Below, in pieces: positions 6,724 to 49,133 of a stretch of DNA of 64,000 nt (within the stretch, counting starts at the first letter, position 1; each line of letters opens with the position of its first letter). The DNA comes from Patescibacteria group bacterium (GTDB lineage: Bacteria > Patescibacteriota > Minisyncoccia > Phycocordibacterales > SBAW01): contig JAIEMM010000012.1 of the NCBI GenBank assembly GCA_019752125.1, positions 3,437 through 67,436 on the forward strand, in the 5' to 3' direction. Made by a program: the position numbers and the translations under genes. Below the pieces are notes generated by a model, which had not been told where the DNA came from, searched no databases, and saw only the letters and a list, made by a program, of their open reading frames with translations.

Positions 6724-7137
6724 ATGGCACGTATATCACAGCTTGTCCGCAAAGGACGCACACAATTGAAGAGCAAGTCGAAGTCACCGGCCCTTGGTCG
6801 TGGTTTCAACGTTCTCAAAAATCGTCCTGTGTTCTACTCGTCTCCATTCAAACGCGGAGTCTGCACGAAAGTAACGACTATGACTCCCCGCAAACCAAAC
6901 TCAGCTATCCGTAAGATTGCCCGTGTTCGCTTGACCAACGGTCAGGAAATCACCGCATACATCCCAGGTGAAGGCCACAACCTCCAGGAACACTCAGTGG
7001 TTATGGTTCGTGCAGGCCGTGTGAAAGACATCAACGTTCGTTACCAGATCGTGCGCGGTCGCCTCGATGCAGGTGCGGTTGAGAAGCGTAATGTTTCTCG
7101 CTCACGTTACGGTGTTAAGCGCTCAACTAAGAAATAA
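6724..7137 (+). CDS. rpsL: 30S ribosomal protein S12
   Basis: [12 protein letters not shown]...PNSAIRK...; start set at conserved N-terminus. Confidence 0.95.
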
Positions 7138-7142
7138 TTTAT

Positions 7143-7613
7143 ATGCGTCGACCAGTTAAAAATCGCAATATCGTCGGTCCTGACATGAAGTTCAACTCAA
7201 CGAAGGTTGAGAAGTTCATCAACTCTGTTATGTGGGACGGCAAGAAGAGCACTGCTCGCAAGGTTGTCTACGATGCGTTCGATATCATTCAGGAGAAAAC
7301 TAAAGTAGAAAGCCCTCTCGAAATCTTTGAAGAAGCTATCCGCAACGTAGGTCCTGCAATGGAAATCCGTTCACGCCGTGTTGGTGGTGCAAACTACCAA
7401 GTTCCTCGCGAAGTTCGTCCAGAACGTAAGCAGGCTCTCGCGTACCGCTGGATACTCATTGCCGCTCGCGCTCGCAAGGGTATGCCTATGGCAAACCGCC
7501 TCGCAGAAGAAATCATTGCAGCATCTAAGAATGAAGGCCCTGCAATCAAGAAGCGCGAAGATACTCACAAGATGGCAGAATCAAACAAGGCGTTCGCACA
7601 CTTCGCCTGGTAA
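7143..7613 (+). CDS. rpsG: 30S ribosomal protein S7
   Basis: 156 aa with S7 signature ([13 protein letters not shown]...). Confidence 0.95.
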
Positions 7614-10037: not shown

Positions 10038-12191
10038 ATGGCTGACACTAGAGACTACCCATTGGAGAAGGTTCGTAACTTCGGAATCATCGCGCACATC
10101 GATGCAGGCAAGACCACCACGTCTGAACGCATTTTGTATTACACCGGCTCACAGCACAAAATCGGCGAAGTGCACGATGGCGGAACCACCACCGACTGGA
10201 TGGAACAGGAAAAGGAGCGCGGTATCACTATCACTGCCGCTGCCATCACTTGTTTCTGGAGCCGCACCGACGAAGCAGATAAAAAAGATATCTCTAAGAA
10301 GTATCGCTTCAACATCATCGACACTCCTGGCCACATCGACTTTACCGTAGAAGTGAAGCGCTCAATGCGCGTACTCGACGGCGCAGTTTGCGTTTTCGAC
10401 GGCGTTGCCGGCGTAGAACCTCAGTCTGAAACAAACTGGCGCTATGCCGATGAAGCTAACGTGCCTCGCGTATGTTTTATCAACAAGCTCGACCGCATGG
10501 GCGCATCGTTTGAAAAATCGTACCAGTCTATTCTCGACCGCCTCACTAAGAATGCAGTTCGCATGCAGCTCCCAATTGGCGCAGAAGAAGCGCTTGCCGG
10601 CGTTGTCGACCTTCTTTCTATGAAGGCTTACAAGAACGAAGGAGCTATGGGAGACAATGTTGTCGAGATGGAAATCCCTGCAGCAATGATGGACGATGTT
10701 AAGAAATATCGCGCGGAGCTCATCGAAAAGATCGTTGAAAACGATGACCAGATGATGACCGACTACCTCGATGGCAAAGAGCCAACACTTGAAGCACTCA
10801 AGGCAACTCTCCGCAAAGCCGTTATCGCAAATAAAATTTTCCCGGTATATACCGGTTCAGCATTGAAGAACAAAGGCGTACAGCTTGTGCTCGACGCAGT
10901 TGTAGACTACTTGCCATCTCCTTTGGACATGCCGCCAGTTACAGGCACAGACCCTCGCACAGGTGAGCCAACAACTCGCACTGCGTCAGACTCTGAACCA
11001 TTCTGCGCACTCGCATTTAAACTCCAGGCAGACCCATTCGTCGGCCAGCTTACATTCTTCCGCGTGTATTCCGGTTCTATTGAAGCAGGTTCATATATCT
11101 ACAACTCAACAACGGGTTCAAAAGAACGCCTCGGCCGCATTGTGCGCCTCCAGGCAAACCAGCGCGAAGAAGTGAAGAAAGTGTATGCAGGTGAAATTGC
11201 AGCAGCAGTAGGTTTGAAGGACACAAAAACTTCTCACACGCTCTGCGATGAAGCAAATCCAATTGTCCTCGAACAAATTAAATTCCCTGAACCAGTTATC
11301 TCGCTCCGCATTGAACCTAAGACAAAAGCTGACCAGGAAAAAATGGGTATGGCTATGAAGAAGCTCGCAGACGAAGACCCAACCTTCCGCGTCTCGACTG
11401 ATACAGAAACAATGGAAACATTGATCTCAGGCATGGGTGAACTCCACTTGGAAATTTTGGTCGACCGCATGAAGCGCGAGTTCGGCGTTGAAGCAAACGT
11501 TGGTACGCCACAAGTTGCATACCGCGAAACAATTCTCCAGGAAGCAGAAGCAGAAGGTAAGTACGTCAAACAAACGGGAGGTAAGGGTCAGTACGGTCAC
11601 GTCCGTTTGCGCCTCAAACCGCTTGAACCGCTTGATCCTGAAAAGAAAATCGCAAAGAACATCACTCGCGAAGACCACTTCGAATTTATCAACAGCATTA
11701 AGGGAGGTGTTATTCCACAAGAATTCATCGGCCCAGTTGAAAAGGGTATCCGTGAAGCAATGGAGCGCGGTATCGTTGCCGGCTACAAGATGGTTGATAT
11801 CTCTGCAGAACTCTACGACGGTTCGTACCACGATGTGGACTCATCAGAAATTGCCTTCAAAATTGCAGCATCGATGGGCTTCCAGGATGCAGCTAAGGCA
11901 GCAAAGGCAGTATTGCTCGAGCCTATTATGAAAGTCGAAGTCGTTGTCCCAGAAAAATTCATGGGTGACGTTACTGGCTCTCTTTCAAGTAAGCGCGGTT
12001 CTATCGAAGGCATGGAAGAACGCGGTCTCGCACGCGCAGTTAAAGCAAAGGTGCCGCTTGCAGAAATGTTCAGCTACACCAGCGCACTCCGCTCTATGAC
12101 AGAAGGTCGCGGTTCGTTCACGATGGAATTCGACCACTACGAAGTCGTTCCGCCAAACGTTGCCGCTGAAATCATCGCCGCAAGAAAATAA
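10038..12191 (+). CDS. fusA: elongation factor G
   Basis: 717 aa, [10 protein letters not shown]-domain and full EF-G domain order. Confidence 0.95.
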
Positions 12192-16053: not shown

Positions 16054-16677
16054 ATGAAGTTTATACTCGGAACAAAGCAACACATGGTTACCGTCTTTGA
16101 TGAAGGCGGTATTGCGCATGCGGCAACTATCATCGTTGCTCAGCCTGCGGTTATAACCCAGCTCAAAACTAAGGAAAAAGAAGGCTATAACGCCGTTCAG
16201 ATTGGTTCAGGCGAGGTTAAAGAAGGCCGTGCTAACAAGGCACAGGTTGGCCACGCTAAGGGCAAGTCACTCAAGAACTTTAAAGAAATTCGCCAGCGCG
16301 ACGGCAAGCTCCCAGAGGGTGTCGAAGTTGGTGGAACTATCGACGTGACTGTATTTACAGCAGGCGAGAAGGTGCAGGTATCTGCAATCTCAAAGGCAAA
16401 GGGTTTCCAGGGTGTTATCAAACGCCATGGCTTCCACGGTGGCCCTCGTTCTCACGGTCAGAAGCACTCTGAACGCGCACCAGGTTCTATCGGCGGTTCA
16501 GGCGGTCGCGCAGGCGGTCGTGTGGCCAAGGGTATGCGCATGGCAGGCCGCATGGGTGGCGACCGTGTTACAGTTCGAAATCTCGCAATCTTGCAGGTAC
16601 ACCCTGAAACAAACGAAATCGTCATCGCAGGTGCCGTCCCAGGCCGCCGCGGTACGCTCGTAGAAATTCGCGGCTAA
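16054..16677 (+). CDS. rplC: 50S ribosomal protein L3
   Basis: 207 aa, L3 signature. Confidence 0.95.
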   Translation: MKFILGTKQHMVTVFDEGGIAHAATIIVAQPAVITQLKTKEKEGYNAVQIGSGEVKEGRANKAQVGHAKGKSLKNFKEIRQRDGKLPEGVEVGGTIDVTVFTAGEKVQVSAISKAKGFQGVIKRHGFHGGPRSHGQKHSERAPGSIGGSGGRAGGRVAKGMRMAGRMGGDRVTVRNLAILQVHPETNEIVIAGAVPGRRGTLVEIRG

Positions 16678-18530: not shown

Positions 18531-18566
18531 AAAAACTCTCGCCTCACGGCGGGAGTTTTGTTTCTT
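18531..18566 (+). terminator. rho-independent terminator after rplB
   Basis: ctcgcc-tcac-ggcggg stem then ttttgttt. Confidence 0.65.
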
Positions 18567-18589
18567 GCTCTTTGGAGAAAATATCCTAT

Positions 18590-18820
18590 AGTAACGCCTA
18601 GATAGTTCGGGGCCACACTCTACGCTAATGCTGGGATGCCTAGAATTGAAGGTATATGGAGGCCCCACCGTCCTTCGTGTTCCTTGTCCTTCGGCCAGCC
18701 GGGACCAGGGTGCCCGTAATCGCTATGCAGACAGACTCTTGGAACGGTATGTGTGTTGGAAATAGCGAACCCAGATTTTTCAGTTTTGCCTGCCTAGTCC
18801 TTTAGGCAGGTTTTTCTTTT
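18590..18820 (+). ncRNA. candidate small RNA / structured transcript ending in a + strand terminator (18789-18820)
   Basis: ~200 nt non-coding stretch after the rplB terminator, ending in cctgcct...aggcagg + T-run; no family recognised by eye. Confidence 0.25.
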
Positions 18821-18821
18821 G

Positions 18822-18851
18822 TAAAAAAGAAATCCCCGCTGCAGGGCGGGG
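18822..18851 (-). terminator. minus-strand terminator (ccccgc..gcgggg + T-run) after gene 18854-19198
   Basis: Hairpin immediately 3' of the minus-strand stop; near-identical copy at 19259-19287. Confidence 0.6.
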
Positions 18852-18853
18852 GT

Positions 18854-19198
18854 TTAATAGTCGTAGGAGGCGAGCTTGTCGAGGAATTTCATCAGATCGG
18901 AAACATATTCCTTGCCTAATGGAATGCTCGCAGATTCCGTCTCCTCTTTCATGGGATCTTCGTAGCACAGCTTCAGCGACTGGCCGTCGATGTAGACCTT
19001 CAGGTAAATCAGTGTGCTTGGTTTCCCCGGACTATCTTCATCCAGGAATCCAACCTGCACAGCTTCGACCTCGAGGTCGGGGTACAGAGGATGGGAGATC
19101 ATAGAGCACCAAATTCCCAAACCCTTTTTATAGCTAAGCCGTTGTTGCGTTTTTCGGTGGATATCTCCGAAAACGGCTTCAGCAACTTCATACGCCAT
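18854..19198 (-). CDS. hypothetical protein (114 aa), antisense insertion in r-protein cluster
   Basis: ATG with RBS gggaga; own terminator; no recognisable domain. Confidence 0.45.
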   Translation of the reverse strand: MAYEVAEAVFGDIHRKTQQRLSYKKGLGIWCSMISHPLYPDLEVEAVQVGFLDEDSPGKPSTLIYLKVYIDGQSLKLCYEDPMKEETESASIPLGKEYVSDLMKFLDKLASYDY

Positions 19199-26126: not shown

Positions 26127-26193
26127 GCTGGCAGCACGGTGCGGCACAGGATTGCTAATCCAGGCGTCGAAGGTTCGAGTCCTTCTGCCAGCG
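26127..26193 (+). ncRNA. tRNA-like element / probable pseudo-tRNA (67 nt; good acceptor and T arms, collapsed D-arm; nominal anticodon GCU)
   Basis: GCTGGCA/TGCCAGC acceptor pairing, GAAGG-TTCGAGT-CCTTC T-arm, TTGCTAA loop; only 13 nt where the D-arm should be; no CCA. Confidence 0.35.
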
Positions 26194-39002: not shown

Positions 39003-39401
39003 ATGCATGAAGAAGATATTTTCTGTGATACGCTATCCTCAATGCACGTAAGAACACTCCGCACCCCAGAGATGGAGGCAAAATACCAAGAGATGAAGGA
39101 TAGCGGCATTATGAATAACAGCTGCCGGCTGTGTGATGAAGATGTAACAATGACTTTTACGCATTGGAGGCTTATACCTAACCGCTTCCCATACGACCAG
39201 GTGTTTGAGCCACATGACATGCTTATCCCTATTCGCCACACGGCCGACATCAACGAAGAGGAGCGGCTCGAGTTGGAAGAAATAAAAAAGTCGTATATCA
39301 ACCACCACTATCGTTACATTATGGAAGCGACCCACTCGACCAAATCCATTCCGCAGCACTACCACTTGCATTTGGTGGAGATAAAGAAGGAAGAGATCTA
39401 A
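39003..39401 (+). CDS. HIT-like fold protein
   Basis: ...LIPNRFPYDQVFEPHDMLIPIRH... and HYHLHLV (HxHxHxx) motif. Confidence 0.5.
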   Translation: MHEEDIFCDTLSSMHVRTLRTPEMEAKYQEMKDSGIMNNSCRLCDEDVTMTFTHWRLIPNRFPYDQVFEPHDMLIPIRHTADINEEERLELEEIKKSYINHHYRYIMEATHSTKSIPQHYHLHLVEIKKEEI

Positions 39402-39402
39402 G

Positions 39403-39846
39403 GTGAACAAAAAGCAGTTTTTAAAATCTCTAAATGATGTGTGGTGCCGGCTCGCAGTGACCGCACATGGGGTGGGGGTAGTTGCCATACGCGACATCCC
39501 TAAAGGTATTGACCCATTTAAAAACTGCGACCCTCACGGCGACGTGCTTGAGATTTCAGAAAAAGAATTGGACGCTAGTCTCGCGCCAAAAGAGGCGAAG
39601 CAATTGGTGCGTGATTTCTGTGCACTGCAAGATGGCGTGTATTTTGTACCCGACTATGGCATTGATGCGATAGATAAATCGTATTTCTTAAATCATTCTG
39701 ACAAGCCCAACATGGTAGCAAAGGATAAAGGAGAAGTGTTTGTCACTGCCCGTCGGATAAAGAAAGGGGAGGAGCTCGTAGCTGACTACGAGCAGTATCA
39801 CGAGTACGTAGAAGTGTTTACCAAAAAACAAAAGCTCACTAACTAA
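39403..39846 (+). CDS. SET-domain protein (putative protein-lysine methyltransferase)
   Basis: GVGVVAIRDIPKG, YFLNHSDKPN, EELVADY motifs in SET order. Confidence 0.7.
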   Translation: MNKKQFLKSLNDVWCRLAVTAHGVGVVAIRDIPKGIDPFKNCDPHGDVLEISEKELDASLAPKEAKQLVRDFCALQDGVYFVPDYGIDAIDKSYFLNHSDKPNMVAKDKGEVFVTARRIKKGEELVADYEQYHEYVEVFTKKQKLTN

Positions 39847-40004
39847 GGGAATGTAGATAAAAATCTGCCTGTATACTTCTTGTGTGAGCATTGGACATCG
39901 ACATCAATCACTCCGCCGTAGGGGAGTGATTAAGACAAAGAACAATAACTTCATATTTAGTATCGGAAGAATTGGGGTCAGGTACCAAATAAATTGAAAA
40001 GTTA

Positions 40005-40032
40005 TGGTGTGATCAAAAACCGCCCTTGAGGC
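40005..40032. terminator. bidirectional terminator (accgcc-cttga-ggcggt + T-run)
   Basis: Read directly. Confidence 0.7.
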
Positions 40033-40095
40033 GGTTTTTGTATTTTGTGGACGTCGCACGAAAAACTTTGTTTTGGAGTGGTATACAATACTGTC

Positions 40096-40653
40096 ATGTC
40101 TTCACAGCGATCAACCTTTGCTTCAAAAATTAAATGGAATGAAGTAACGTGGTATTCAAAACTAGGAGCAATAATTTTTTTCATTGGTGTGGCGCCCGCG
40201 CTTTCTTTTTATATAGGGATGCAGTACCAAGCAGCGACACAACCATTTACACCTCATATTTCTGACCTACATAAGGCAGCTGGAGTTCATAGAGGAGAAA
40301 TACTAGTGTCTGACTCTACGACAGTATTCACTTTAAGTGGAAAACTCGTAGAAGAACAATTTTTTGGCCCACCAAATTATGGTGAAAGTCCACAGACGGA
40401 TTCAAAACAGAATATGCTTATGCTTCTTTTATCTAAACCTGTAAATGTACAAGGAAATGAAACAAATTTTGTAAATAATGAATATTACCCAAATATAAAT
40501 AAAATTCAGCTTGAGCTTGTTGGTAGTCCAATAGTGGATGCACTGGTTGGTAAAGAGATAACAGTGAGCGGAACTTTCCATGACGCTCACAATGCACACC
40601 AGCACACTCCAGTGTTGCTCAAGGTGGAGACGATCACTGCTGGTTCGAAGTAA
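40096..40653 (+). CDS. hypothetical membrane-anchored protein
   Basis: ATG 40096; one N-terminal TM; start lies 8-14 nt after a TATACAAT -10-like element. Confidence 0.4.
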   Translation: MSSQRSTFASKIKWNEVTWYSKLGAIIFFIGVAPALSFYIGMQYQAATQPFTPHISDLHKAAGVHRGEILVSDSTTVFTLSGKLVEEQFFGPPNYGESPQTDSKQNMLMLLLSKPVNVQGNETNFVNNEYYPNINKIQLELVGSPIVDALVGKEITVSGTFHDAHNAHQHTPVLLKVETITAGSK

Positions 40654-40684
40654 TAGGTCAGAAATCTTTCTATCGAAAAAACAC

Positions 40685-40713
40685 CCTAATTGGGTGTTTT
40701 TTAACTATTGTGG
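40685..40713. terminator. bidirectional terminator (aacaccc-taatt-gggtgtt)
   Basis: Read directly. Confidence 0.7.
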
Positions 40714-40923
40714 AGGAGGTCTCAGGAAGTTGGAACCAACTGGAAGCGCTTGTATTTGAGTGGTACGGCATCCTATCGAGCTCCAAACTCGTGCCCCAGA
40801 GGGCATAAAACGAGCCACACCACACGTTATCTGCGAAACGTAGGGTCACATAGGAGTTATGCAACCATGTAGGGTAATAGGAAACTCCCTCTATGGGTCA
40901 CATAGAGGGAGTTAACGAGAGAC

Positions 40924-41184
40924 TTAACCAGGGGAGTTTGCCGGATCGCGATCGCCTGGGAATGTGCGCTCTTCCTGAATGCGCGCACTCTCTTTAAGCT
41001 GGATTTTCACCGAGCCGCCGTTGGCACCCAATGCTCTTTCGAGGACGCCACCTTTTGTGGCCTTTTCTTTGGTCGTGAATGTTTTAACGACCTGGTGGGT
41101 TTTATTTTTGAACAATTCCCACTTTTCCTTGCCCTCGTTGAACCCGAGTGTGTACTGCGGTAGCGGAGGTAATTTTTTACCCAT
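40924..41184 (-). CDS. DUF2188-like small protein
   Basis: 86 aa; KWELFKNKTHQVVKTFTTKEKA...GGSVKIQLKESARIQEERTFPGDRDP pattern. Confidence 0.45.
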   Translation of the reverse strand: MGKKLPPLPQYTLGFNEGKEKWELFKNKTHQVVKTFTTKEKATKGGVLERALGANGGSVKIQLKESARIQEERTFPGDRDPANSPG

Positions 41185-41266
41185 AGCTATTAATTAATAT
41201 TACGTACGCGCAAAGCAGTTCGCAGGGGTGAGCCCGGGGCGTTCCGGGCGCCGCACTGCGTGGTCG

Positions 41267-41728
41267 TTAAGACCAGGGAGACGTAACAGCGAGTGGGAGT
41301 ACGTTAGGGAAGCGGTCGCCCACCTTGGGTTTCCACGTGTCCGCTAAGTATCGTTCCACAGCATCAAGCTTGGAGGAGTGAACCGGTGCCCAAGTCACGA
41401 ACAAGCCGAGGTGCTTGTAGGCCATGATAGTTGGGTCGTCGCGGTGGGATGCGAGGCGGTCGCGGATGATTCCTTGACCGATGCGCACTACCGCTGGGCT
41501 CAATCCGCCGTGCCAGATGATGTAGACCCCAACCATATCGTCGAAATGGGTATGACCCAGATTGACCGTAGGAAGGGGACACCAGCCGTTCGTACACTGC
41601 TGCCATGAGGCTGTTTGCATAAGTACGTCGGGGATAATCGAACGGGTTGTTAATGAGCGGGCATGGTAAGCTTTAGTTGTAAGACTTTCGCGATCTACCG
41701 TCCTAAGAAACGCCCTCCGGGCAGACAA
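41267..41728 (-). CDS. hypothetical protein, possible GIY-YIG-like nuclease fold (start uncertain; alternative ATG at 41620)
   Basis: GVYIIWHGG...VVRIGQG.IRDRLASH resembles GIY...YIG...R..H. Confidence 0.3.
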   Translation of the reverse strand: MSARRAFLRTVDRESLTTKAYHARSLTTRSIIPDVLMQTASWQQCTNGWCPLPTVNLGHTHFDDMVGVYIIWHGGLSPAVVRIGQGIIRDRLASHRDDPTIMAYKHLGLFVTWAPVHSSKLDAVERYLADTWKPKVGDRFPNVLPLAVTSPWS

Positions 41729-41859
41729 TCAGCGGGCTTACTCGCCCTAAACCTTCGCAGGAGCGTCGGTTCTACTTCATATGATACTCACTTTGGGGCT
41801 TTTGTCCAGAGGCTGTACAAGAGATGGACACGGGGATAAGCTGGGGATATAATGGGGAT

Positions 41860-42507
41860 ATGCATGAGATTCAAAAAGTGCTCCTCACCATCCTTCAAGA
41901 GAGGGGAATACAGGTGCTTCCACCTTTACGAAAACTTGGCGAACTGACTGGCAAGACCCTTTCCGCGCAACAGGTCAAACACCACTTAGAACAACTACAG
42001 AAGAAAGGATTTATTTCAATAGATAAAAATACAAAAAAGATTGAAATCACAGTTGGTACTGAAAAAAAATCGCAAAAACAATCTTTCTATACACTCCCGC
42101 TGTATGGCGCAGTTAACTGTGGCCCGGCCTTGAGTCTGGCAGAACAAATACCTGAGAGTTTTATAAAAATTTCTTCAAATATTCTTAAGGGTTTTAGATC
42201 CGAGAATCTTTTTGTTGTAAGGGCAAGCGGAGATTCAATGAATAAGGCTGTTGTAGGAGGTAAAAGAATTGAAGATGGTGACTTTTTAGTTGTAGATACT
42301 TCAAAAGTTAACATTCGGGGTAAGGGGGAAATAGTTCTTTCTATTATTGATGGAGCGGCAAATATTAAAAGATTATATAAAGAACAAGATTCTTTTGTTT
42401 TGGTTTCAGACTCCACTAAAGATTATCCTCCAATCTATATTTCAATAAGTGATGATTTTTCAGTAAATGGAACTGTGGTTGCAGTGATGAAAAAGCCAAA
42501 AGGATAG
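41860..42507 (+). CDS. lexA: LexA-like repressor (winged-helix N-domain + S24 peptidase domain)
   Basis: S24 Ser-Lys dyad context (ASGDSMNKA...IVLSI); LexA-type wHTH N-terminus. Confidence 0.6.
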   Translation: MHEIQKVLLTILQERGIQVLPPLRKLGELTGKTLSAQQVKHHLEQLQKKGFISIDKNTKKIEITVGTEKKSQKQSFYTLPLYGAVNCGPALSLAEQIPESFIKISSNILKGFRSENLFVVRASGDSMNKAVVGGKRIEDGDFLVVDTSKVNIRGKGEIVLSIIDGAANIKRLYKEQDSFVLVSDSTKDYPPIYISISDDFSVNGTVVAVMKKPKG

Positions 42508-42528
42508 GGCTAAAGTTCCAAGAGTAAT

Positions 42529-42726
42529 TTATCTCCCCAATAGTCTATCAATCTTTTCTTCGACGTTTCTAAATTTGTCTTCAAAGTAGCTCCATACGAT
42601 GTAGAGAATTAGACCTGCCCCTGCAAAAGTTTCTACTGTATATGAGAAACTCTGGGTGCCAGCGATAAGCCATGCTACGAGGAGAAATAAACAAATAGCC
42701 ACCCAGTTCCAAATTTTATGTTTCAT
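42529..42726 (-). CDS. small 2-TM membrane protein
   Basis: 65 aa, two hydrophobic helices; no other support. Confidence 0.3.
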   Translation of the reverse strand: MKHKIWNWVAICLFLLVAWLIAGTQSFSYTVETFAGAGLILYIVWSYFEDKFRNVEEKIDRLLGR

Positions 42727-42744
42727 GCGAATTAATTAACTGGT

Positions 42745-42895
42745 AACAAAAAGCCCGCCGCGGGTAGTGGCCGAAGCCACTCATGCAAGTTTCCCTGCAC
42801 GGCCGGTGAAGGCAGACCCCACGACGGGTTTTCTGGCCTTCACCGGACTTTCGACCTTGCCGATAGGGAAGCTATCGGGTTAGGTCCTTTTTATT
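42745..42895 (+). ncRNA. candidate structured RNA/leader with long imperfect hairpins and a terminator (42853-42895) upstream of the AbiV-like gene
   Basis: gtggc-cgaa-gccac tetraloop hairpin; ccggtgaaggc...gccttcaccgg 11-bp arms; gacc..cgatag-ggaagc-tatcg..ggtc + T-run. Confidence 0.3.
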
Positions 42896-42942
42896 CAGTT
42901 GTGCATTTATGATACGTCATTTCAGTTATTAGTAAACGATGG

Positions 42943-43638
42943 TTGAATGGAGGGGTGATTACCAACCAGAAGCTGGATAGAATGGCATTTTTGGCCTTCT
43001 GCAATGCAATTCGTTTGCACGAAGATGCGATAGAACTCTACAAGATCAAGAGCTACTCATCGGCTTTCTTTTTGTCGGTTTTGTCACAAGAAGAGATTGG
43101 GAAAATGCATTTGATAAATGATTATACTTGGCAGCGAGGCACAAGCGATGATCCAAAAGCATACGCTAAAGGTGTCGAAAAAATGTTTGTGGAAGCAATT
43201 TTTCTACATAAACTAAAGCAAGCTCATTTTTTACTAAATTCTCCCATAGAAAATAATTATTCGGCTCGTGGAAGGAGGATTATGGAAGAAGCGTGGAAGG
43301 GGGTACTGGATGGTGAAAAACAAAATGCAGTTTACGTCGGTTTTGGTAGAAAGAACGGGAAAATAGATACTTCTGGGCCAATCAAACACCCATGGCAAGT
43401 TACCGAAAAAGAAGCAGAAACTCAGATCACTAAAATGAATGATTATCTATTAGTATTTGGTCTCGGTCTTCGCTACACCAACTTCGTTTTTGAGAACGAA
43501 GATATAGAATATATGTGGAAGGGAAAAAAGTTTCTCCGTAAAATTTCGTCTCTGTGGAAGAGTTACAGCAGGTCAGCAAAGAAACAAATTAAAACTTATC
43601 AAAAACTGCTTAAAGAAAATATCGTCAACGTCTCCTGA
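42943..43638 (+). CDS. AbiV-like (HEPN-type) abortive-infection candidate
   Basis: N-terminal ...AIELYKIKSYSSAFFLSVLSQEEIGK... resembles AbiV family. Confidence 0.35.
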   Translation: MNGGVITNQKLDRMAFLAFCNAIRLHEDAIELYKIKSYSSAFFLSVLSQEEIGKMHLINDYTWQRGTSDDPKAYAKGVEKMFVEAIFLHKLKQAHFLLNSPIENNYSARGRRIMEEAWKGVLDGEKQNAVYVGFGRKNGKIDTSGPIKHPWQVTEKEAETQITKMNDYLLVFGLGLRYTNFVFENEDIEYMWKGKKFLRKISSLWKSYSRSAKKQIKTYQKLLKENIVNVS

Positions 43639-43661
43639 TAGCGTTTTATAATAAAACTAAG

Positions 43662-44198
43662 ATGACTAAAAAGAACTTGTCACAGAAAGCAAAACTCTCT
43701 CTGGAGGAAAAGGCTAAAAAGGATAAGGAATTTGGGGGTGGGGTTGGTCGTGGCAACAAGTTGGAGCGCACTCGAGGAATATTTAGGACCTGGCTATTAG
43801 TGCCAAGGAATTTCCTTGGTGCCAACGAACAAATCTTCAGGGCTCTCGGGTTTATAGATGCAGAAACTATCGAATTGTATTCAATAAAATCTCAGGCAGA
43901 ATTTGCAGAAAAGTTCGGGGTAGCCGAACCCACTCTTTCTCGCTGGAAGGGGGAGATAGAAAAAGCAGGCAATGATCTCGCCGATTTTAGGCAGGAAATG
44001 AAACACTTGAGCATCAACCTTATGGGTGCTTTGTATCGAAAGGGATTGAGTACGGGAGATCCAGCTGCTATAAAACTTTGGCTCCAAGTAATGGAGGGAT
44101 GGAATGAACGTACTGTGCACCAGGTTGATGTAAGCGGGTACCAACTCTCAGAGGAGGAAAAAGCTGAATTGGATCAACTAATGGAAGCAAACTTATAA
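43662..44198 (+). CDS. phage terminase small-subunit-like HTH protein
   Basis: SQAEFAEKFGVAEPTLSRWKG HTH and ...DPAAIKLWLQVMEGW... as in TerS (Terminase_2-type). Confidence 0.4.
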   Translation: MTKKNLSQKAKLSLEEKAKKDKEFGGGVGRGNKLERTRGIFRTWLLVPRNFLGANEQIFRALGFIDAETIELYSIKSQAEFAEKFGVAEPTLSRWKGEIEKAGNDLADFRQEMKHLSINLMGALYRKGLSTGDPAAIKLWLQVMEGWNERTVHQVDVSGYQLSEEEKAELDQLMEANL

Positions 44199-44241
44199 AA
44201 TATAAAAGTTTTATAAACAGGGGATAACCCATCAAGTTTTA

Positions 44242-44269
44242 TTGGGAAATTTTTAGTGCTTGGTATAAT
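44242..44269 (+). promoter_or_regulatory. candidate promoter (TTGGGA-N16-TATAAT) upstream of small ORF + recombinase
   Basis: Consensus -10 with TG-like extension. Confidence 0.5.
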
Positions 44270-44350
44270 TGGGTTACGAAATAACTTAAAGAGCGACCGT
44301 TCTTTAAGGCCGGTATAATCCGGAATTTGGTGGGAAGAATAGGCAAAGGG

Positions 44351-44394
44351 CCCCCAAACTCAATCTGAATTTATATTCGGACTAAGTTTGGGGG
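44351..44394. repeat. 44-bp imperfect palindrome (cccccaaact...ttata...agtttggggg): terminator or recombinase att-like site
   Basis: 10-bp perfect outer arms plus 7/10 inner matches around central TTATA; ~230 nt upstream of the recombinase. Confidence 0.35.
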
Positions 44395-44428
44395 CGTTCG
44401 TTTTCTCACCAGCGAAGCCTCCGACAAA

Positions 44429-44623
44429 ATGTTGTCGGTTGAAGAATGTAGAAAATATGTCGGTAACGACATGTCAGACAAGGAAGTGGAGAATCTTCGA
44501 GATACTCTCTACTCGTTTTCGAGCATGGTGCTCGAGGCCTACTTTGATGCCCAAAAGAGGGCGGGGAATAGTGGTTTGCTTTCGGTTCCAAAGCACGACA
44601 GCGTGAAGGAGGAAAAGAATTGA
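44429..44623 (+). CDS. hypothetical small protein co-transcribed with recombinase
   Basis: 64 aa, stop 1 nt before the recombinase ATG. Confidence 0.3.
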   Translation: MLSVEECRKYVGNDMSDKEVENLRDTLYSFSSMVLEAYFDAQKRAGNSGLLSVPKHDSVKEEKN

Positions 44624-44624
44624 T

Positions 44625-46238
44625 ATGGCAAAGAAAGCACTAATTTACTGCCGAGTATCTTCCGTTAGGCAGGCTACTGAAGGTCATGGCTTGGATGCTC
44701 AAGAACATCGATGCCGTGAATTTGCACGCGCCAAAGACTATGAAGTCGTAACTGCTTTCAAAGATAGTTTTAGCGGCGGAGGCGATTATAGAAATCGTCC
44801 TGGAATGACCAGTCTTTTGGAATATATCGATAAGTATCCACATATAGAGTTCGTGGTTCTTTTTGATGATCTTAAGCGTTTGGCAAGAGATACTATTTTC
44901 TATCTTGAACTGCTGCAGGAATTTAAAATACGAGGTGTGGCGCTTGAGAGCCCGAACATTGTTTTGGGAAATTCAGCGGAAGATGAATTTGTGCAAACTG
45001 TCCTGATGGGTGCTGCACAATTGGAACGCAAACAAAATAAACGACAAGTAGTTCAAAAAATGAAAGCACGATTGGAGAAAGGCTACTGGGCTTTTTATCC
45101 GCCTCCTGGTTACAGACAAGTGAAAGATCCTGTACATGGAAGGATATTAATCCCCACCGATGTAGAAGCCCCCATTATTAAAGAAGCCCTTGAGGGTTTT
45201 GCATCTGGCAGATTTCCGCACCTTACGGATGTAATGAATTTTCTCCGGGAGGTCGGCTTCCGTGGCCGTCCCATCTATGTAGAAGGCGTCAGGCGTTTAT
45301 TAAAGCGAATTATATATGCCGGCTATATCGAATACCCTGCATGGGATGTGGCAACTACAAAAGGTCATCACGAGGCTCTTATAAGTCTTGAGACATATCA
45401 AATTATTCAAGATCGTCTCGCTGGACGTTACAAAGCGCGTGCTCGCAAGACAGATAATCTTTATTTCGTTCTGCGAGGTTTCCTTTTGTGTGCATCTTGT
45501 AGCCATGCATATACCGGCAGCTGGTCGAAAGGGAGGAATGGTAAGTTTCGATATTACCGTTGCAACAAGCCAGGCTGCGAACGTTTAAATAAGAGCATCC
45601 GTGCAGACAAAATTGATAAGGAGTTCGAAGTATTACTCAAATCTGTTCTCCCTAAGCAAGAGATGGCGCAATTCGCCAAGGCGGTAGTCTTGGATATATG
45701 GGCAAGCAAAGTAAAAGATTTTAAAAATGATCAGGCGATGCTTGAACGACGGCTCGCGGCCATCAAGCAGGATATCGACGCTTTGTCCCGTCGCATTGCA
45801 AAGACAGTCGAAGAATCTTTAATACGTAATTACGAGCAACAGATCCTGAGTTTGACCAACGAAAGTAGGGTTTTGCAGGAGCAACTCAAGAATTTGGGTT
45901 TATCAGCAGTAAGTTTTGAAACCGCATTGGAAGTGGTCATGGCGTTTCTCAATAATCCTTTGGCTATATGGGAAAACGGCGACCTAAACGCAAAAAGATT
46001 AGTCTTGCGACTAATCTTTGCGGACAAATTGGCGTACCATCACGAACTTGGTTTTGGAACCGCTCAAAAATCCTTGCTTATAGGTCTTTTTGAGCAGGTT
46101 CATGCCAAAAAATCTCAGGATGTGGAGATGCCGGGAGTTGAACCCGGGTGCAAAGCAAATTCTTTACGCGATCTACCAAACGTAGTTCGTTCTAAGTTCT
46201 CGTCTATCTGCATCAAGAGCGAACAAAAGCGCAGATAG
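44625..46238 (+). CDS. large serine recombinase (resolvase catalytic domain + recombinase domain + zinc ribbon + coiled coil)
   Basis: ALIYCRVSSVRQ catalytic Ser; Cys cluster CASCSHAY...YYRC; 537 aa. Confidence 0.85.
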   Translation: MAKKALIYCRVSSVRQATEGHGLDAQEHRCREFARAKDYEVVTAFKDSFSGGGDYRNRPGMTSLLEYIDKYPHIEFVVLFDDLKRLARDTIFYLELLQEFKIRGVALESPNIVLGNSAEDEFVQTVLMGAAQLERKQNKRQVVQKMKARLEKGYWAFYPPPGYRQVKDPVHGRILIPTDVEAPIIKEALEGFASGRFPHLTDVMNFLREVGFRGRPIYVEGVRRLLKRIIYAGYIEYPAWDVATTKGHHEALISLETYQIIQDRLAGRYKARARKTDNLYFVLRGFLLCASCSHAYTGSWSKGRNGKFRYYRCNKPGCERLNKSIRADKIDKEFEVLLKSVLPKQEMAQFAKAVVLDIWASKVKDFKNDQAMLERRLAAIKQDIDALSRRIAKTVEESLIRNYEQQILSLTNESRVLQEQLKNLGLSAVSFETALEVVMAFLNNPLAIWENGDLNAKRLVLRLIFADKLAYHHELGFGTAQKSLLIGLFEQVHAKKSQDVEMPGVEPGCKANSLRDLPNVVRSKFSSICIKSEQKRR

Positions 46239-46548
46239 ATAAAGTTCAAGTCTTAGACAAACGGGCGAACAATCCGTTTATAGCAACTCGATGTTATAAC
46301 ACTTGATCCTTCCTCACGAGTGTTGGAAGGGAAGTGACACGTTAAGCCTTAGCGTAGGCGAACGCGAAATCATTCGCCGTGAAAAACGGCGATGCAACTG
46401 ATTTGCCAGTTAGAGTTTGGAGCAGTTTAAAGAATTACCCCAGTTCTGATTGGCAACGTAAAGAGTGGTTGCAATGTCTAGGCCTGTCATCCCCAAGAAG
46501 TTCGCGACGCTAACCCGTGCTTCTTGCAGATTTTTGACCTATTCACCT

Positions 46549-47025
46549 TTATTGATTTTTCAAAGTCCTTCGAATGTCGCGATCAGTGTCTCTTTTCTTT
46601 AAGACGGCGCGCTTGTCGTATTTCTTACGTCCGCGCCCCACAGCGACCTTCACCTTCAATTTACTGCCCTTATTATACACTGAAATTGGCACAATTGTCA
46701 AGCCTTTCTGGCTTTCATATGCTGCAAGTTCAGGAAGTTCTTTCTTTGTAAGGAGAAGTTTACGGCTACGGTCGGGGTCGTAGTCGTCTGGGGTATTGGC
46801 TGCCTGGTAGGGTGGGATATGCATCCCTACTATATATGCTTCGCCCCCGCGCACTACCACGTGAGAACCTTCAAGCTTGCCGTGGCGAGCACGAATGCTC
46901 TTTACTTCGTGTCCGAGCAATTCGATGCCCGCCTCGAATTCTTCGAGGATCTCGTAGTCCAACCGCGCTTTCTTGTGTTCTATAAGATTCACGCTCTGAA
47001 TATACCATTTTCTTTTGTTTTTCAT
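46549..47025 (-). CDS. smpB: SsrA-binding protein SmpB
   Basis: 158 aa; ...DYDPDRSRKLLLTKKEL... Confidence 0.9.
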   Translation of the reverse strand: MKNKRKWYIQSVNLIEHKKARLDYEILEEFEAGIELLGHEVKSIRARHGKLEGSHVVVRGGEAYIVGMHIPPYQAANTPDDYDPDRSRKLLLTKKELPELAAYESQKGLTIVPISVYNKGSKLKVKVAVGRGRKKYDKRAVLKKRDTDRDIRRTLKNQ

Positions 47026-47051
47026 ATTCCAAAGTGTTACTATGTTTGCAA

Positions 47052-49019
47052 ATGGCTGAACAAAAAAATCTCAAACATAGCGGGCAGAAAAAGGGCAATG
47101 GCAAGGTCCATTTACCAAAGATTCCAAAAAATTCTTTTTGGGTAAATGTTGCTACGACCGTTTTGATACTTCTTATACTTACAAGCGCGTATTCATACTT
47201 CACTGCAAGTAAAGAGAGTGCGCCAGAGGTTATTCCTGTATCGCAGCTTGCGCAAGATATACAGTCGGGCAAAGTTTCGCAGATAACGGTAAGCGGTGAC
47301 GAGCTCACCATCAACTACGCACCTGTTGGAGAAGCTGCCTCTGTAAAAAAGATTTCTAAAAAAGAACCTGACGCTGCACTTACTGAGACGCTCAACAACT
47401 ACGGAGTTTCAAAAGATTCTCTCGACAAAGTAACAATTAGTATTGAGCGCCAGAGCGGCTGGCAGTACTGGCTCGGTATTCTTGCGCCCTTTGTTGCGCC
47501 ACTGCTTTTGATTGCATTCTTTGTATGGTATCTCTCTCGCCAAGTAAAAGGGGCGGGCATGCAGGCATTTTCTTTCGGCCAGTCAAAACACCGAGTCATA
47601 GACCCAAACGACAAATCTCAGAAAGTTACATTTAAAGATGTTGCGGGTGCGAAAGAAGCGAAAATAGAATTGCTGGAAATTGTGGACTTCTTGAAGAATC
47701 CTAAAAAATTCTTAGACATTGGTGCGCGTATTCCAAAAGGCATCTTGCTTATGGGCCCTGCTGGTACCGGTAAAACATTGCTCGCCCGTGCGGTGGCAGG
47801 GGAGGCAGGTGTGCCGTTCTACTCCATCTCTGGTTCTGAATTCGTTGAAATGTTTGTAGGTGTCGGCGCATCACGCGTACGCGATTTGTTCCATATGGCA
47901 AAGCACGCAGCACCTGCAATTATCTTTGTTGATGAAATTGATGCGGTCGGCCGTGTCCGTGGTACAGGTGTGGGTGGCGGTAACGATGAGCGCGAACAAA
48001 CTCTCAACCAGATTCTTGTTGAAATGGACGGCTTTGAGCCGAATGAAAAAGTTATAGTCATGGCGGCAACGAACCGCCCAGACGTACTCGACCCAGCGCT
48101 TGTGCGCCCGGGCCGCTTTGACCGCCGCGTTGCAATTGATTTGCCTGACCGCCAAGACAGAAAAGATATTTTGACAACTCACGCGCGCAAAAAACCGCTT
48201 GCAGAGGACGTAAACTTGGAAGTTATTGCAGAGAGAACCCCTGGTTTTTCTGGCGCAGACTTGGCAAACCTTATGAACGAAGCGGCAATTCTTGCTGCAC
48301 GTGAAGGTCGTAAGACGGTCGCGCAATTTGACCTCGTTCGCTCAATAGAAAAAGTGATGCTCGGACCGGAGCGCAAGTCGCATGTAATGAATGCGAAAGA
48401 AAAAGAGATCACTGCGTACCACGAAGCAGGCCACGCTATTGTTGCCTCGCTCTTGCCGCACGCAGACCCAGTACACAAAATCTCTATCATTTCTCGCGGC
48501 CGCGCAGCAGGGTATACGCTCAAGCTTCCATTTGAAGACAAGCGCATGCAGAGCAAGAAAGAATTCCTCGACGACATCGCAATGTCACTTGGTGGCTATG
48601 TTGCTGAAAAGACTGTGTTTGATGATGTAACCACAGGCCCTTCAAACGACCTCCAGGTTTCAAGTGCCTTGGCACGCGACATGGTGACGCGCTACGGCAT
48701 GTCAGAGAAAGTTGGAACTGTTGCGCTTGAAGGCGCTGATGGCCGCGCACTCTTTGGTGCGGGCGTAAACGGAAAAGAATATTCTGAAAAGGTATCTGCG
48801 GAGATAGATGGGGAAGTGAAGCGCATTATGGACGAGGCATACAAAAAAGCCCAGCACATAATCGACACACATCGCCCGCTCCTTAACGCTATCGCACATC
48901 GCTTGGTAGAAGTTGAGACTCTCGAACGCGAAGAGTTTGAAACTATCCTCGTCGCTCACGGCGTCACTCCAAAAAAGAAACAAGAAATAGAAGTAAAGCC
49001 AGTTACGGTTAACTTCTAA
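47052..49019 (+). CDS. ftsH: ATP-dependent zinc metalloprotease FtsH
   Basis: AAA Walker [13 protein letters not shown] zinc motif. Confidence 0.9.
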
Positions 49020-49058: not shown

Positions 49059-49061
49059 CTG

Positions 49062-49133
49062 TGGGCGCGGAAGGGATCGAACCTTCGACCATTCGTGTAT
49101 AAGACGAACGCTCTACCACTGAGCTACGCGCCC
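49062..49133 (-). tRNA. tRNA-Ile, anticodon UAU (AUA-decoding)
   Basis: GGGCGCG acceptor, GCTC/GAGC D-stem, anticodon arm TTCGT-CTTATAC-ACGAA, T-arm GAAGG-TTCGATC-CCTTC; CCA not encoded. Confidence 0.7.

Follow-up and report, generated by a model that had tools for sequence, protein, structure and literature searches.

A probable ssrA-specific serine-integrase defence island in a Parcubacteria-group genome and its association with LOOT RNA

The 64,000 nucleotides of contig JAIEMM010000012.1 analysed here (referred to as the window) come from a Parcubacteria-group bacterium, i.e. a member of the Patescibacteria or candidate phyla radiation (CPR), with a single gene for transfer-messenger RNA (tmRNA), ssrA. 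Next to this gene lies what is, with a probability of roughly four in five, an integrative genomic island some 5.4 kb long (approximately 40708–46131), a defence island inserted specifically at ssrA by a serine integrase. Horizontal acquisition of the region is supported by an unoccupied site in a relative, by its rarity among relatives and by its atypical G+C content. Two points go beyond what has been described: integrases of this family target tmRNA or tRNA genes (together, t(m)RNA genes) throughout their clade, and an RNA of the Rfam family LOOT, along with a membrane-protein gene, is tied to these islands. A search of the open-access literature found no papers on serine-integrase ssrA islands in Patescibacteria.

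An insertion at the 3' end of the tmRNA gene

SmpB served as query in a metagenome scan that yielded 80 related loci, among which L126 was the closest relative found with long flanks (SmpB 93%, FtsH 93% and RecG 88% identical). Its gene order is recG–ftsH–smpB–ssrA, followed by a homologue (90% identical) of the open reading frame (ORF) at 39403–39846 of the window and then by homologues of the window ORFs at 39003, 38214 and 37284. Between the tmRNA 3' end and the stop codon of the 39403–39846 homologue, L126 has 19 nt; about 6.3 kb found here in the window is missing from L126, and the region is therefore an insertion. Nucleotide homology between the two loci ends at 39843 and restarts at 46122; the tmRNA gene of the window is still complete, and its 3'-terminal 45 nt are identical to those of the unoccupied locus.

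The integrase is rare in this neighbourhood. The scan provided 57 distinct related tmRNA loci, 30 of them with at least 1.7 kb of sequence past the tmRNA, and an integrase was found beyond the tmRNA in none of these 30 and in one shorter contig (L098). Furthermore, G+C content is 0.39–0.43 across 42–45 kb as against about 0.49 elsewhere. An earlier, sequence-only reading of 41267–46300 had taken this DNA for an integrative, mobile module that should have an empty counterpart in a related genome and that conservation and synteny in all relatives would argue against; the unoccupied site in L126, the absence of the integrase from the 30 long relatives and the atypical G+C content bear out this view. 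It had also correctly placed smpB beside the module, but left out that the recombinase ORF overlaps a tmRNA gene and that the inserted DNA extends to the left of 41267, to about 40708 (or to 39844 relative to L126).

Two further observations concern the composition of this locus and its relatives. The leftmost part of the island, at 41–42 kb, which contains a DUF2188-like gene and a 153-codon ORF, has a G+C content of 0.53 in contrast to 0.39–0.43 in the rest, and this suggests a mosaic origin. In addition, L087, L150/L152 and L154 carry inserts of 1.5–4 kb between ssrA and the conserved flanking genes that are unlike the window island and have no integrase. The 3' flank of ssrA is a variable hotspot even without an integrase.

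The tmRNA gene, directly downstream of smpB, was missed by ARAGORN and found with the Rfam model. In the integrase loci fetched for comparison, ARAGORN reported 22 tmRNAs as against about 45 found by an nhmmer profile, i.e. Patescibacteria tmRNAs appear to be under-called by this program.

A clade of serine integrases at t(m)RNA 3' ends

The three-domain large serine recombinase at the ssrA-proximal end of the island (table 1), already recognized as such in the sequence-only reading, begins with a Resolvase domain (PF00239, 4.7e-23, residues 5–154) that includes a YCRVSS motif, and its C-terminal part matches PF07508 (4.7e-6) and PF13408 (7.2e-9), both above cutoff. In an alignment of 40 family sequences, R10, S12 and S13 are nearly invariant and the zinc-ribbon cysteines C289, C292, C313 and C318 are invariant, and the window protein retains all family-invariant residues. 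It also matches the NCBIfam models for XisF (1e-24), CcrB (5e-23) and CcrC (2e-19), all with scores so far below the equivalog cutoffs that it is not an orthologue of any of these proteins.

Over 119 nt at its end, the recombinase ORF overlaps the tmRNA 3' end on the opposite strand. Codons 499–537, i.e. the last 39 (DVEMPGVEPG...), are the antisense of the tmRNA acceptor stem and T-arm, and the ORF therefore crosses the attachment site. This is a family trait, since the C-terminal consensus in the same alignment, SQDVEMxGxEP, is the antisense of a t(m)RNA 3' end. At E < 1e-20, the recombinase has more than 1,500 homologues, the best being 45–59% identical and, where named, from the Parcubacteria group; exact look-ups of the integrase and of SmpB gave no entry for either protein. 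In three independent genomes (L001, L003 and L004), the integrase gene (int) is followed by ssrA, smpB and ftsH as in the window, with an int–tmRNA overlap of 44–215 nt and with unrelated cargo upstream in each case: (i) a Dam-type methylase and a 439-residue protein, (ii) a CD-NTase, a HARE-HTH protein and a type III restriction–modification system, and (iii) a Z1 protein with a C5 methylase. The smpB–ssrA/ftsH synteny is common to the window, these three genomes and L126.

For the clade as a whole, GTDB species genomes were scanned for recombinase homologues and 80 loci were kept. The homologue abuts a tmRNA gene in 30 of these and a tRNA gene (Ala, Tyr, Arg, Ser, Thr, Leu, Lys or Val) in 39, while six end at a contig edge and five are next to neither; thus, 69 of the 74 assessable loci are t(m)RNA-adjacent, across Patescibacteria, Proteobacteria and Melainabacteria. 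The orientation of int relative to the t(m)RNA gene is always convergent. The clade ranges over Patescibacteria, Alpha- and Gammaproteobacteria and Melainabacteria, and a few distant members occur in IMG/VR proviral contigs, also beside tRNA genes.

Two of the integrase loci contain group I introns (L018, 11874–12121; L017, 2050–2309), the one in L018 about 300 nt past the tRNA-Ala gene abutted by the integrase. In another locus (L034, 10001–18937), int ends at 11527, the tmRNA gene follows 7 kb further on (18531–18937) and a second LOOT RNA (16336–16452) lies between the two. The locus resembles a pair of tandem islands, an accretion as in Dehalococcoides.

Island boundaries and the proposed crossover

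In L001, L003, L004, L015, L023, L024, L028, L035 and L067, the related island is bounded on its far side by a direct repeat of the 3' end of ssrA or of the tRNA gene. Repeat lengths are, e.g., 16 nt (L001), about 20 nt (L003) and 13 nt (L004), and the islands so bounded are 3.5–10.9 kb long. In islands at tRNA-Ala genes, repeat identity ends within the T-loop, which suggests that the crossover region is located there. According to the mechanism that we propose, the serine recombinase would act within the last 7–20 nt or so of ssrA, between acceptor strand and T-loop; one half of the attachment (att) site would be carried by the element inside the 3' end of int, and the tmRNA 3' end would be re-created on integration.

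In the window, the proximal junction falls at the tmRNA 3' end, and 40708–40742 is the probable distal junction, as judged from its sequence, in a degenerate form. A convergent terminator hairpin lies just ahead of it, an arrangement also seen at the empty site of L126 and at the left junction of L015. The candidate matches this L015 junction in 25 of 29 columns and resembles the element-side P' arms of L004 and L003. A second copy of the ssrA 3' end was searched for by blastn-short, Smith–Waterman alignment, a 3-mismatch pattern search and a hidden Markov model (HMM) built from 89 distinct tmRNA 3' ends, with nothing significant found; other candidates for the distal junction, at 39881 and 41137, were dropped. 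With the junction at 40708, the distal site would be eroded, and the copy in the window may therefore not excise precisely. The segment between this junction and the end of homology to L126 (39844–40707) is probably either host flank of this particular lineage or an older insertion, outside of the integrase-bounded island. Its DUF4431 protein retrieved no relatives in the metagenome scan.

Small ORFs of the GIY-YIG type also occur close to ssrA, in L004 (12073–12339) between tmRNA and smpB and in L003 (753–1019) beside the distal ssrA repeat of the island; these may represent a second kind of selfish element in the same neighbourhood.

LOOT RNA and a membrane-protein gene

Upstream of int, the window contains a full-length match to the LOOT RNA model, with a terminator-like tail and an ORF for a 65-residue membrane protein directly 3' of it. 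Both lie on the minus strand, divergent from the gene for an AbiV-like protein. What the sequence-only reading had taken for a structured leader of abiV is thus LOOT, upstream of the membrane-protein ORF, and a leader function for abiV is rejected on the grounds of strand. The structure of LOOT is well backed: compensatory changes occur in 27 of 33 pairs across 24 distinct island copies, paired cells amount to 85.5% as compared with 29–44% in slid controls, and the fold z-score is −6.5.

A covariance model (R1) built from five copies gave 25 matches in the integrase loci and the window, corresponding to 19 distinct related islands plus that of the window. All are situated 0.4–2.4 kb upstream of int, in either orientation, and belong to non-proteobacterial, mostly Patescibacteria, integrase loci, with none in the proteobacterial ones. 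In most loci, a GGCGGGCTTTTTG-type tail comes directly after LOOT, and the hairpin is present in the minimum-free-energy structure of the window copy; a conserved tail of the GGCGGGCUUUUUG type follows LOOT nearly always. In nearly all of the 25 LOOT loci, the next gene, about 30–70 nt on, encodes a protein with a predicted transmembrane helix, highly variable in length and sequence. In the 80 SmpB-anchored loci (600 kb), R1 had a single match, directly after a tmRNA. This locus, L089 (2290–3077), has LOOT 300 nt past the tmRNA 3' end and no integrase homologue within its 12 kb; it may be an integrase-less remnant island.

LOOT reportedly belongs to the 224 motifs described by Weinberg et al. 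2017. Rfam lists it (RF03000) only as a small-RNA gene, and no paper giving its function or genomic context was found in the open-access literature, the supplement of the original paper aside. Three observations on LOOT come from the present analysis: the RNA is linked to serine-integrase islands, it has a terminator-like tail, and a membrane-protein gene comes after it. LOOT might be a terminator-coupled leader that gates the membrane-protein gene or, alternatively, a small RNA controlling maintenance, immunity or excision of the island. Our wider proposal, that LOOT is a functional part of undescribed miniature defence islands of Patescibacteria and, jointly, that their integrase belongs to a phylum-spanning clade of serine recombinases specialized on t(m)RNA 3' ends, is put forward tentatively, as one that could well turn out otherwise.

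A small ORF coupled to the integrase gene

The small ORF noticed in the sequence-only reading at 44429–44623 does exist and encodes a 64-residue helix–loop–helix protein. Homologues were found by tblastn in 23 integrase loci, just upstream of int in all the matches listed, and the family retrieved by phmmer comprises 34 representative clusters, which share the motif MLSxEECRKYLG..SDxExExxRDxLY. The AlphaFold2 model consists of a short and a long helix and is confident (predicted local distance difference test, pLDDT, above 95 for residues 1–44); with this model, Foldseek returned no informative match. The protein is a core partner of the integrase and, because of its position beside int, a candidate directionality or regulatory factor; excision would need a directionality factor, and the 64-residue protein could possibly provide it.

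Further upstream, the 'TATAAT promoter' of the sequence-only reading corresponds to a promoter-like site, TTGGGA-16-TGnTATAAT, which matches the consensus; sites of this kind are no commoner in the region than in shuffled sequence. The palindrome claimed as an att-like site is likewise real, as a 46-bp hairpin located 34–79 nt upstream of the small ORF. A role as attP is rejected: since the palindrome is internal to the integrated element, it cannot be an att site, and the actual site is the ssrA 3' end. Long hairpins of other sequence occur at the same relative position (−87 to −11) in L010, L012, L019/L032, L008, L047 and L039. Because these sequences are unrelated, what is conserved is position and structure, and the palindrome is a regulatory or insulating hairpin.

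Cargo of the window island and of its relatives

The genes between the distal junction and the small ORF are cargo and accessory genes, among them those for the three proteins on which the sequence-only reading had based its idea of a phage satellite. The protein encoded at 41824–42507 is, from its sequence, a member of the LexA family, as that reading had it. It matches TIGR00498 over its full length (1.5e-24, residues 30–224) with 86.7 bits, below the equivalog cutoff of 110.95, and alignment to UmuD and LexA structures reveals the GDSM serine, the IKRL lysine and a UmuD-like VNCG cleavage site (C-G). Its true start is probably the ATG at 41860, with a TATAAT ahead of it at 41848–41853. A protein of this kind would couple some function of the island to DNA damage or RecA activation.

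The AbiV-like protein equally stands, with scores above cutoff for PF18728 (1e-17; 65.1 bits, cutoff 27.1) and TIGR04498 (5e-16; 59.3 bits, cutoff 27). In L010, a homologue (56% identical) likewise lies between LOOT and int. AbiV would protect the host against phage.

The 178-residue, all-helical protein with a helix-turn-helix (HTH), which had been likened to the small terminase subunit (TerS), does not hold up as such. Its matches are weak (phrog_309, 8e-5, over the HTH stretch; phrog_24579, 0.028; PF13022, 0.03), a sequence-profile search of the PDB found no significant match to terminases or anything else, and its best Foldseek match, the phage protein 2ao9, has E = 0.9 and a probability of 0.2, in a test that is itself weak because the model reaches a pLDDT of 62 only. 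Eight homologues were found, all in Patescibacteria islands of the same type, and the protein is not conserved across the island family, being absent from most members. Its gene is a rare accessory one, carried by some of these islands.

At the left end, the 153-codon ORF (ORF153) had no match in Pfam, PHROG, NCBIfam or PDB; a tentative assignment as a nuclease was dropped, as Pfam, NCBIfam and PDB gave no support for it. A homologue (59% identical) is found in the L059 island (6994–7326), 2.7 kb upstream of its integrase. More generally, 142 ORFs upstream of 31 integrases were scanned for cargo, which consists mainly of methylases, ResIII, Z1, AAA_21/AAA_15 and HATPase_c_3 proteins, M78 + HTH_3 pairs, PLD proteins and kinase domains; capsid, portal, terminase, primase and relaxase genes are not among the most frequent families. 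In the window island itself, Pfam, PHROGs, NCBIfam and PADLOC revealed no genes for replication, packaging or capsid remodelling.

Outside of the island, a gene for tRNA-Ile with the anticodon TAT (UAU), an uncommon bacterial isoacceptor, lies between ftsH and recG (49061–49133, minus strand). Another match to the tRNA model at 26127–26193 (plus strand) is borderline (29.6 bits, gathering score 29) and was not called by ARAGORN; a tRNA that is degenerate or affected by an intron could explain it, and so could chance.

Table 1. Features of the window island and its flanks (window coordinates; '.' marks features listed without a strand).
Feature	Position	Strand	Remarks
Extra DNA relative to L126	39844–40707	.	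homology to L126 stops at 39843
DUF4431 gene	40045–40653	+	Pfam match 8e-9; in the 39844–40707 segment
Terminator hairpin of DUF4431 gene	40666–40697	.	read from sequence
Distal junction, probable (attL-type, B-O-P')	40708–40742	.	TGTGGAG (ssrA 3'-end heptamer), then GAGGTCTCAGGAAGTTGGAACC, a P'-arm-like motif
DUF2188-like small protein, 86 aa	40924–41184	-	PF09954 4e-4 (below cutoff), phrog_3220 1e-5; cargo
ORF153, 153 aa	41267–41728	-	high-GC segment; recurrent island cargo
LexA-family repressor/autoprotease	41824–42507	+	N-terminal winged helix and S24; PF00717 3e-19; phrog_4 5e-24
Membrane-protein ORF, 65 aa	42529–42726	-	directly 3' of LOOT; maximal Kyte–Doolittle hydropathy (19 residues) 2.17
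Terminator-like tail of LOOT	42745–42765	-	short GC hairpin and U-run (ACCCGCGGCGGGCUUUUUGU)
LOOT RNA (RF03000)	42766–42886	-	86.8 bits, gathering score 46.4; full model
AbiV-family HEPN abortive-infection protein	42943–43638	+	defence cargo; PADLOC AbiV 3e-6
All-helical HTH protein, 178 aa	43662–44198	+	weak HTH and phrog_309 matches only
Promoter-like site TTGGGA-16-TGnTATAAT	44242–44269	+	upstream of the small-ORF/int pair; consensus matches alone
Inverted repeat CTTAAAGA-N8-TCTTTAAG	44285–44308	.	after the promoter-like site
Palindrome/hairpin, 46 bp	44350–44395	.	21-nt arms, 86% complementary
Helix–loop–helix protein, 64 aa	44429–44623	+	stop 1 nt before int ATG; conserved
Large serine recombinase (integrase)	44625–46238	+	Resolvase, Recombinase and Zn_ribbon_recom domains; phrog_95 7e-72
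Proximal junction (attR-type, P-O-B')	within ~46100–46145	.	at tmRNA 3' end
tmRNA gene (ssrA)	46120–46494	-	RF00023 86.8 bits, model positions 1–374; integration target, intact
smpB	46549–47025	-	PF01668 7e-48; host gene
ftsH	47034–49019	+	beyond smpB

Discussion

The closest described system is that of the ssrA-specific genomic islands (ssrA-GI) of Dehalococcoides, with their integrase DsiB compared here by its description. In these islands, the far end carries an ssrA repeat of 20 bp, the cargo varies, and tandem as well as integrase-less copies occur (PMC3146451). Both are small islands at the 3' end of a single-copy tmRNA gene, with a CcrB-like large serine recombinase of about 540 residues at the ssrA-proximal end whose ORF crosses the att site into ssrA and thereby acquires a variable C-terminal tail, with a short ssrA 3'-end repeat at the far boundary (in the relatives L001, L003, L004 and L015), and with variable cargo and tandem or integrase-less islands. 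Yet one belongs to Chloroflexota and the other to Patescibacteria. The Dehalococcoides islands are characterized by a six-gene module (DsiB, the small serine recombinase DsiA, a RecF-like, a ParB-like and a Mom-like protein, the latter with an embedded tRNA-like locus, and a large protein), whereas the window island has no second Resolvase-domain protein, no match to the ParB, Mom or RecF families and no tRNA; its conserved partners are instead the 64-residue helix–loop–helix ORF and LOOT RNA. Cargo differs as well, with reductive dehalogenases there and anti-phage defence and restriction–modification here. The element in the window thus works like an ssrA-GI, outside of that six-gene module family.

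Resolvase, Recombinase and zinc-ribbon domains in the same architecture are shared with the recombinases of staphylococcal cassette chromosome mec (SCCmec) elements (CcrA/CcrB and CcrC), with XisF and with the phage integrases of A118 and Bxb1. SCCmec-type elements are also small, lack transfer genes and use one conserved chromosomal site, but this is a protein-coding gene such as orfX/rlmH and not an RNA gene, and the window island has no second recombinase. Integration into the 3' part of a t(m)RNA gene that is thereby restored, an int gene adjoining the target and a displaced 3' fragment as a direct repeat are hallmarks of tyrosine-integrase islands (Islander/TIGER; Williams 2002), from which the element in the window differs by its recombinase family. 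For serine integrases, Mageeney et al. 2020 found 14 of 297 islands at t(m)RNA genes, a previously unreported use that was considered to need proof (PMC7192596); here, it is an entire clade, with 69 of 74 assessable loci, that is found at such genes.

Three other explanations have to be weighed against an ssrA-specific defence island. In a phage satellite of the type of phage-inducible chromosomal islands (PICI) or Staphylococcus aureus pathogenicity islands (SaPI), helper phage or SOS induction would act via the LexA-like repressor and the DNA would be packaged in helper capsids with the 178-residue protein as small terminase. Integrase, repressor, small size and some defence genes are indeed shared, some SaPIs encode a TerS of their own, the HTH protein has a TerS-like size, weak matches to terminase small subunits and a phage protein as its top, non-significant fold match, and distant relatives of the integrase occur in proviral contigs. 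Yet the satellite-like gene content claimed in the sequence-only reading does not materialize: primase or other replication genes, an origin, cos/pac-related genes and genes for capsid size, capsid remodelling or packaging interference are all missing from the window island, which at 5.4 kb is also short of the 10–15 kb of PICIs and SaPIs. In addition, the TerS homology is not significant and finds no backing in PDB sequences or folds, most members of the family lack the HTH protein, whose eight homologues are all in similar non-phage islands, and the 31 related islands carry defence and restriction–modification cargo, with no packaging genes among the most frequent families. We know of no helper phage for the window island. 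A satellite is therefore a very improbable reading.

At similarly long odds stands a decayed prophage, in which integrase and repressor would be left over from a temperate phage at ssrA after gene loss and a later gain of cargo. It would account for ssrA as a classic prophage site, for a LexA/CI-type S24 repressor next to the integrase (table 1), for the degenerate attL side and for distant integrase relatives in predicted proviruses. Against it, the S24 repressor is not conserved among the related islands, and dozens of independent Patescibacteria islands of 3.5–11 kb have the same compact layout of LOOT, small ORF and int without structural genes among their most frequent cargo families, which fits an element type better than parallel decay. 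An island that arrived in the same way but is now fixed, having lost excision and keeping its recombinase as a landing pad or in another role, e.g. the resolution of tandem islands, is unlikely, though it deserves more weight than a passing mention. The distal junction shares about 7 nt with ssrA and no displaced ssrA fragment is detectable, the mosaic G+C content (0.53 next to 0.39–0.43) suggests accretion, L034 has a tandem arrangement and many ssrA-GIs of Dehalococcoides have no integrase. The integrase, however, retains every family-invariant residue, the coupled small ORF and the upstream hairpin are intact, and a short repeat is no proof of immobility, because serine integrases need little identity between their sites.

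Some findings weigh against an intact, integrase-bounded defence island. With TGTGGAG, the junction at 40708 offers about 7 nt of identity to ssrA, and its similarity score equals the best of 40 shuffles and is no better; for this reason, the junction is a probable one only, and the left boundary and the crossover point are not fixed. The segment 39844–40707 is left unaccounted for by such an island. No 12-mer, with up to one mismatch, is common to the regions upstream of the lexA-like gene, LOOT/abiV and int, and this comparison thus gave no sign of a shared operator of the LexA-box-like kind that the sequence-only reading had proposed to look for. The AbiV assignment follows from homology, and position is what suggests the roles of the 64-residue protein, the LexA-like protein, LOOT and the membrane protein. 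Finally, the island encodes no transfer mechanism. From the lack of transfer genes, we infer passive movement between cells, by transformation or transduction.

If the ssrA-specific defence island is the correct reading, it bears on how very small genomes are defended. The tiny genomes of CPR/Patescibacteria have few recognized mobile elements or defence systems, and a common compact island that shuttles restriction–modification, Abi and CBASS-like (cyclic-oligonucleotide-based anti-phage signalling) genes, with the tmRNA or tRNA-Ala locus as destination, would give this group a concrete route for exchanging defence genes. Furthermore, the function of LOOT becomes testable now that the RNA has a genomic context that recurs among islands. 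The clade-wide use of t(m)RNA 3' ends is at odds with the usual assignment of these sites to tyrosine integrases. For genome engineering, the clade also provides unidirectional integrases whose natural landing sites are conserved.

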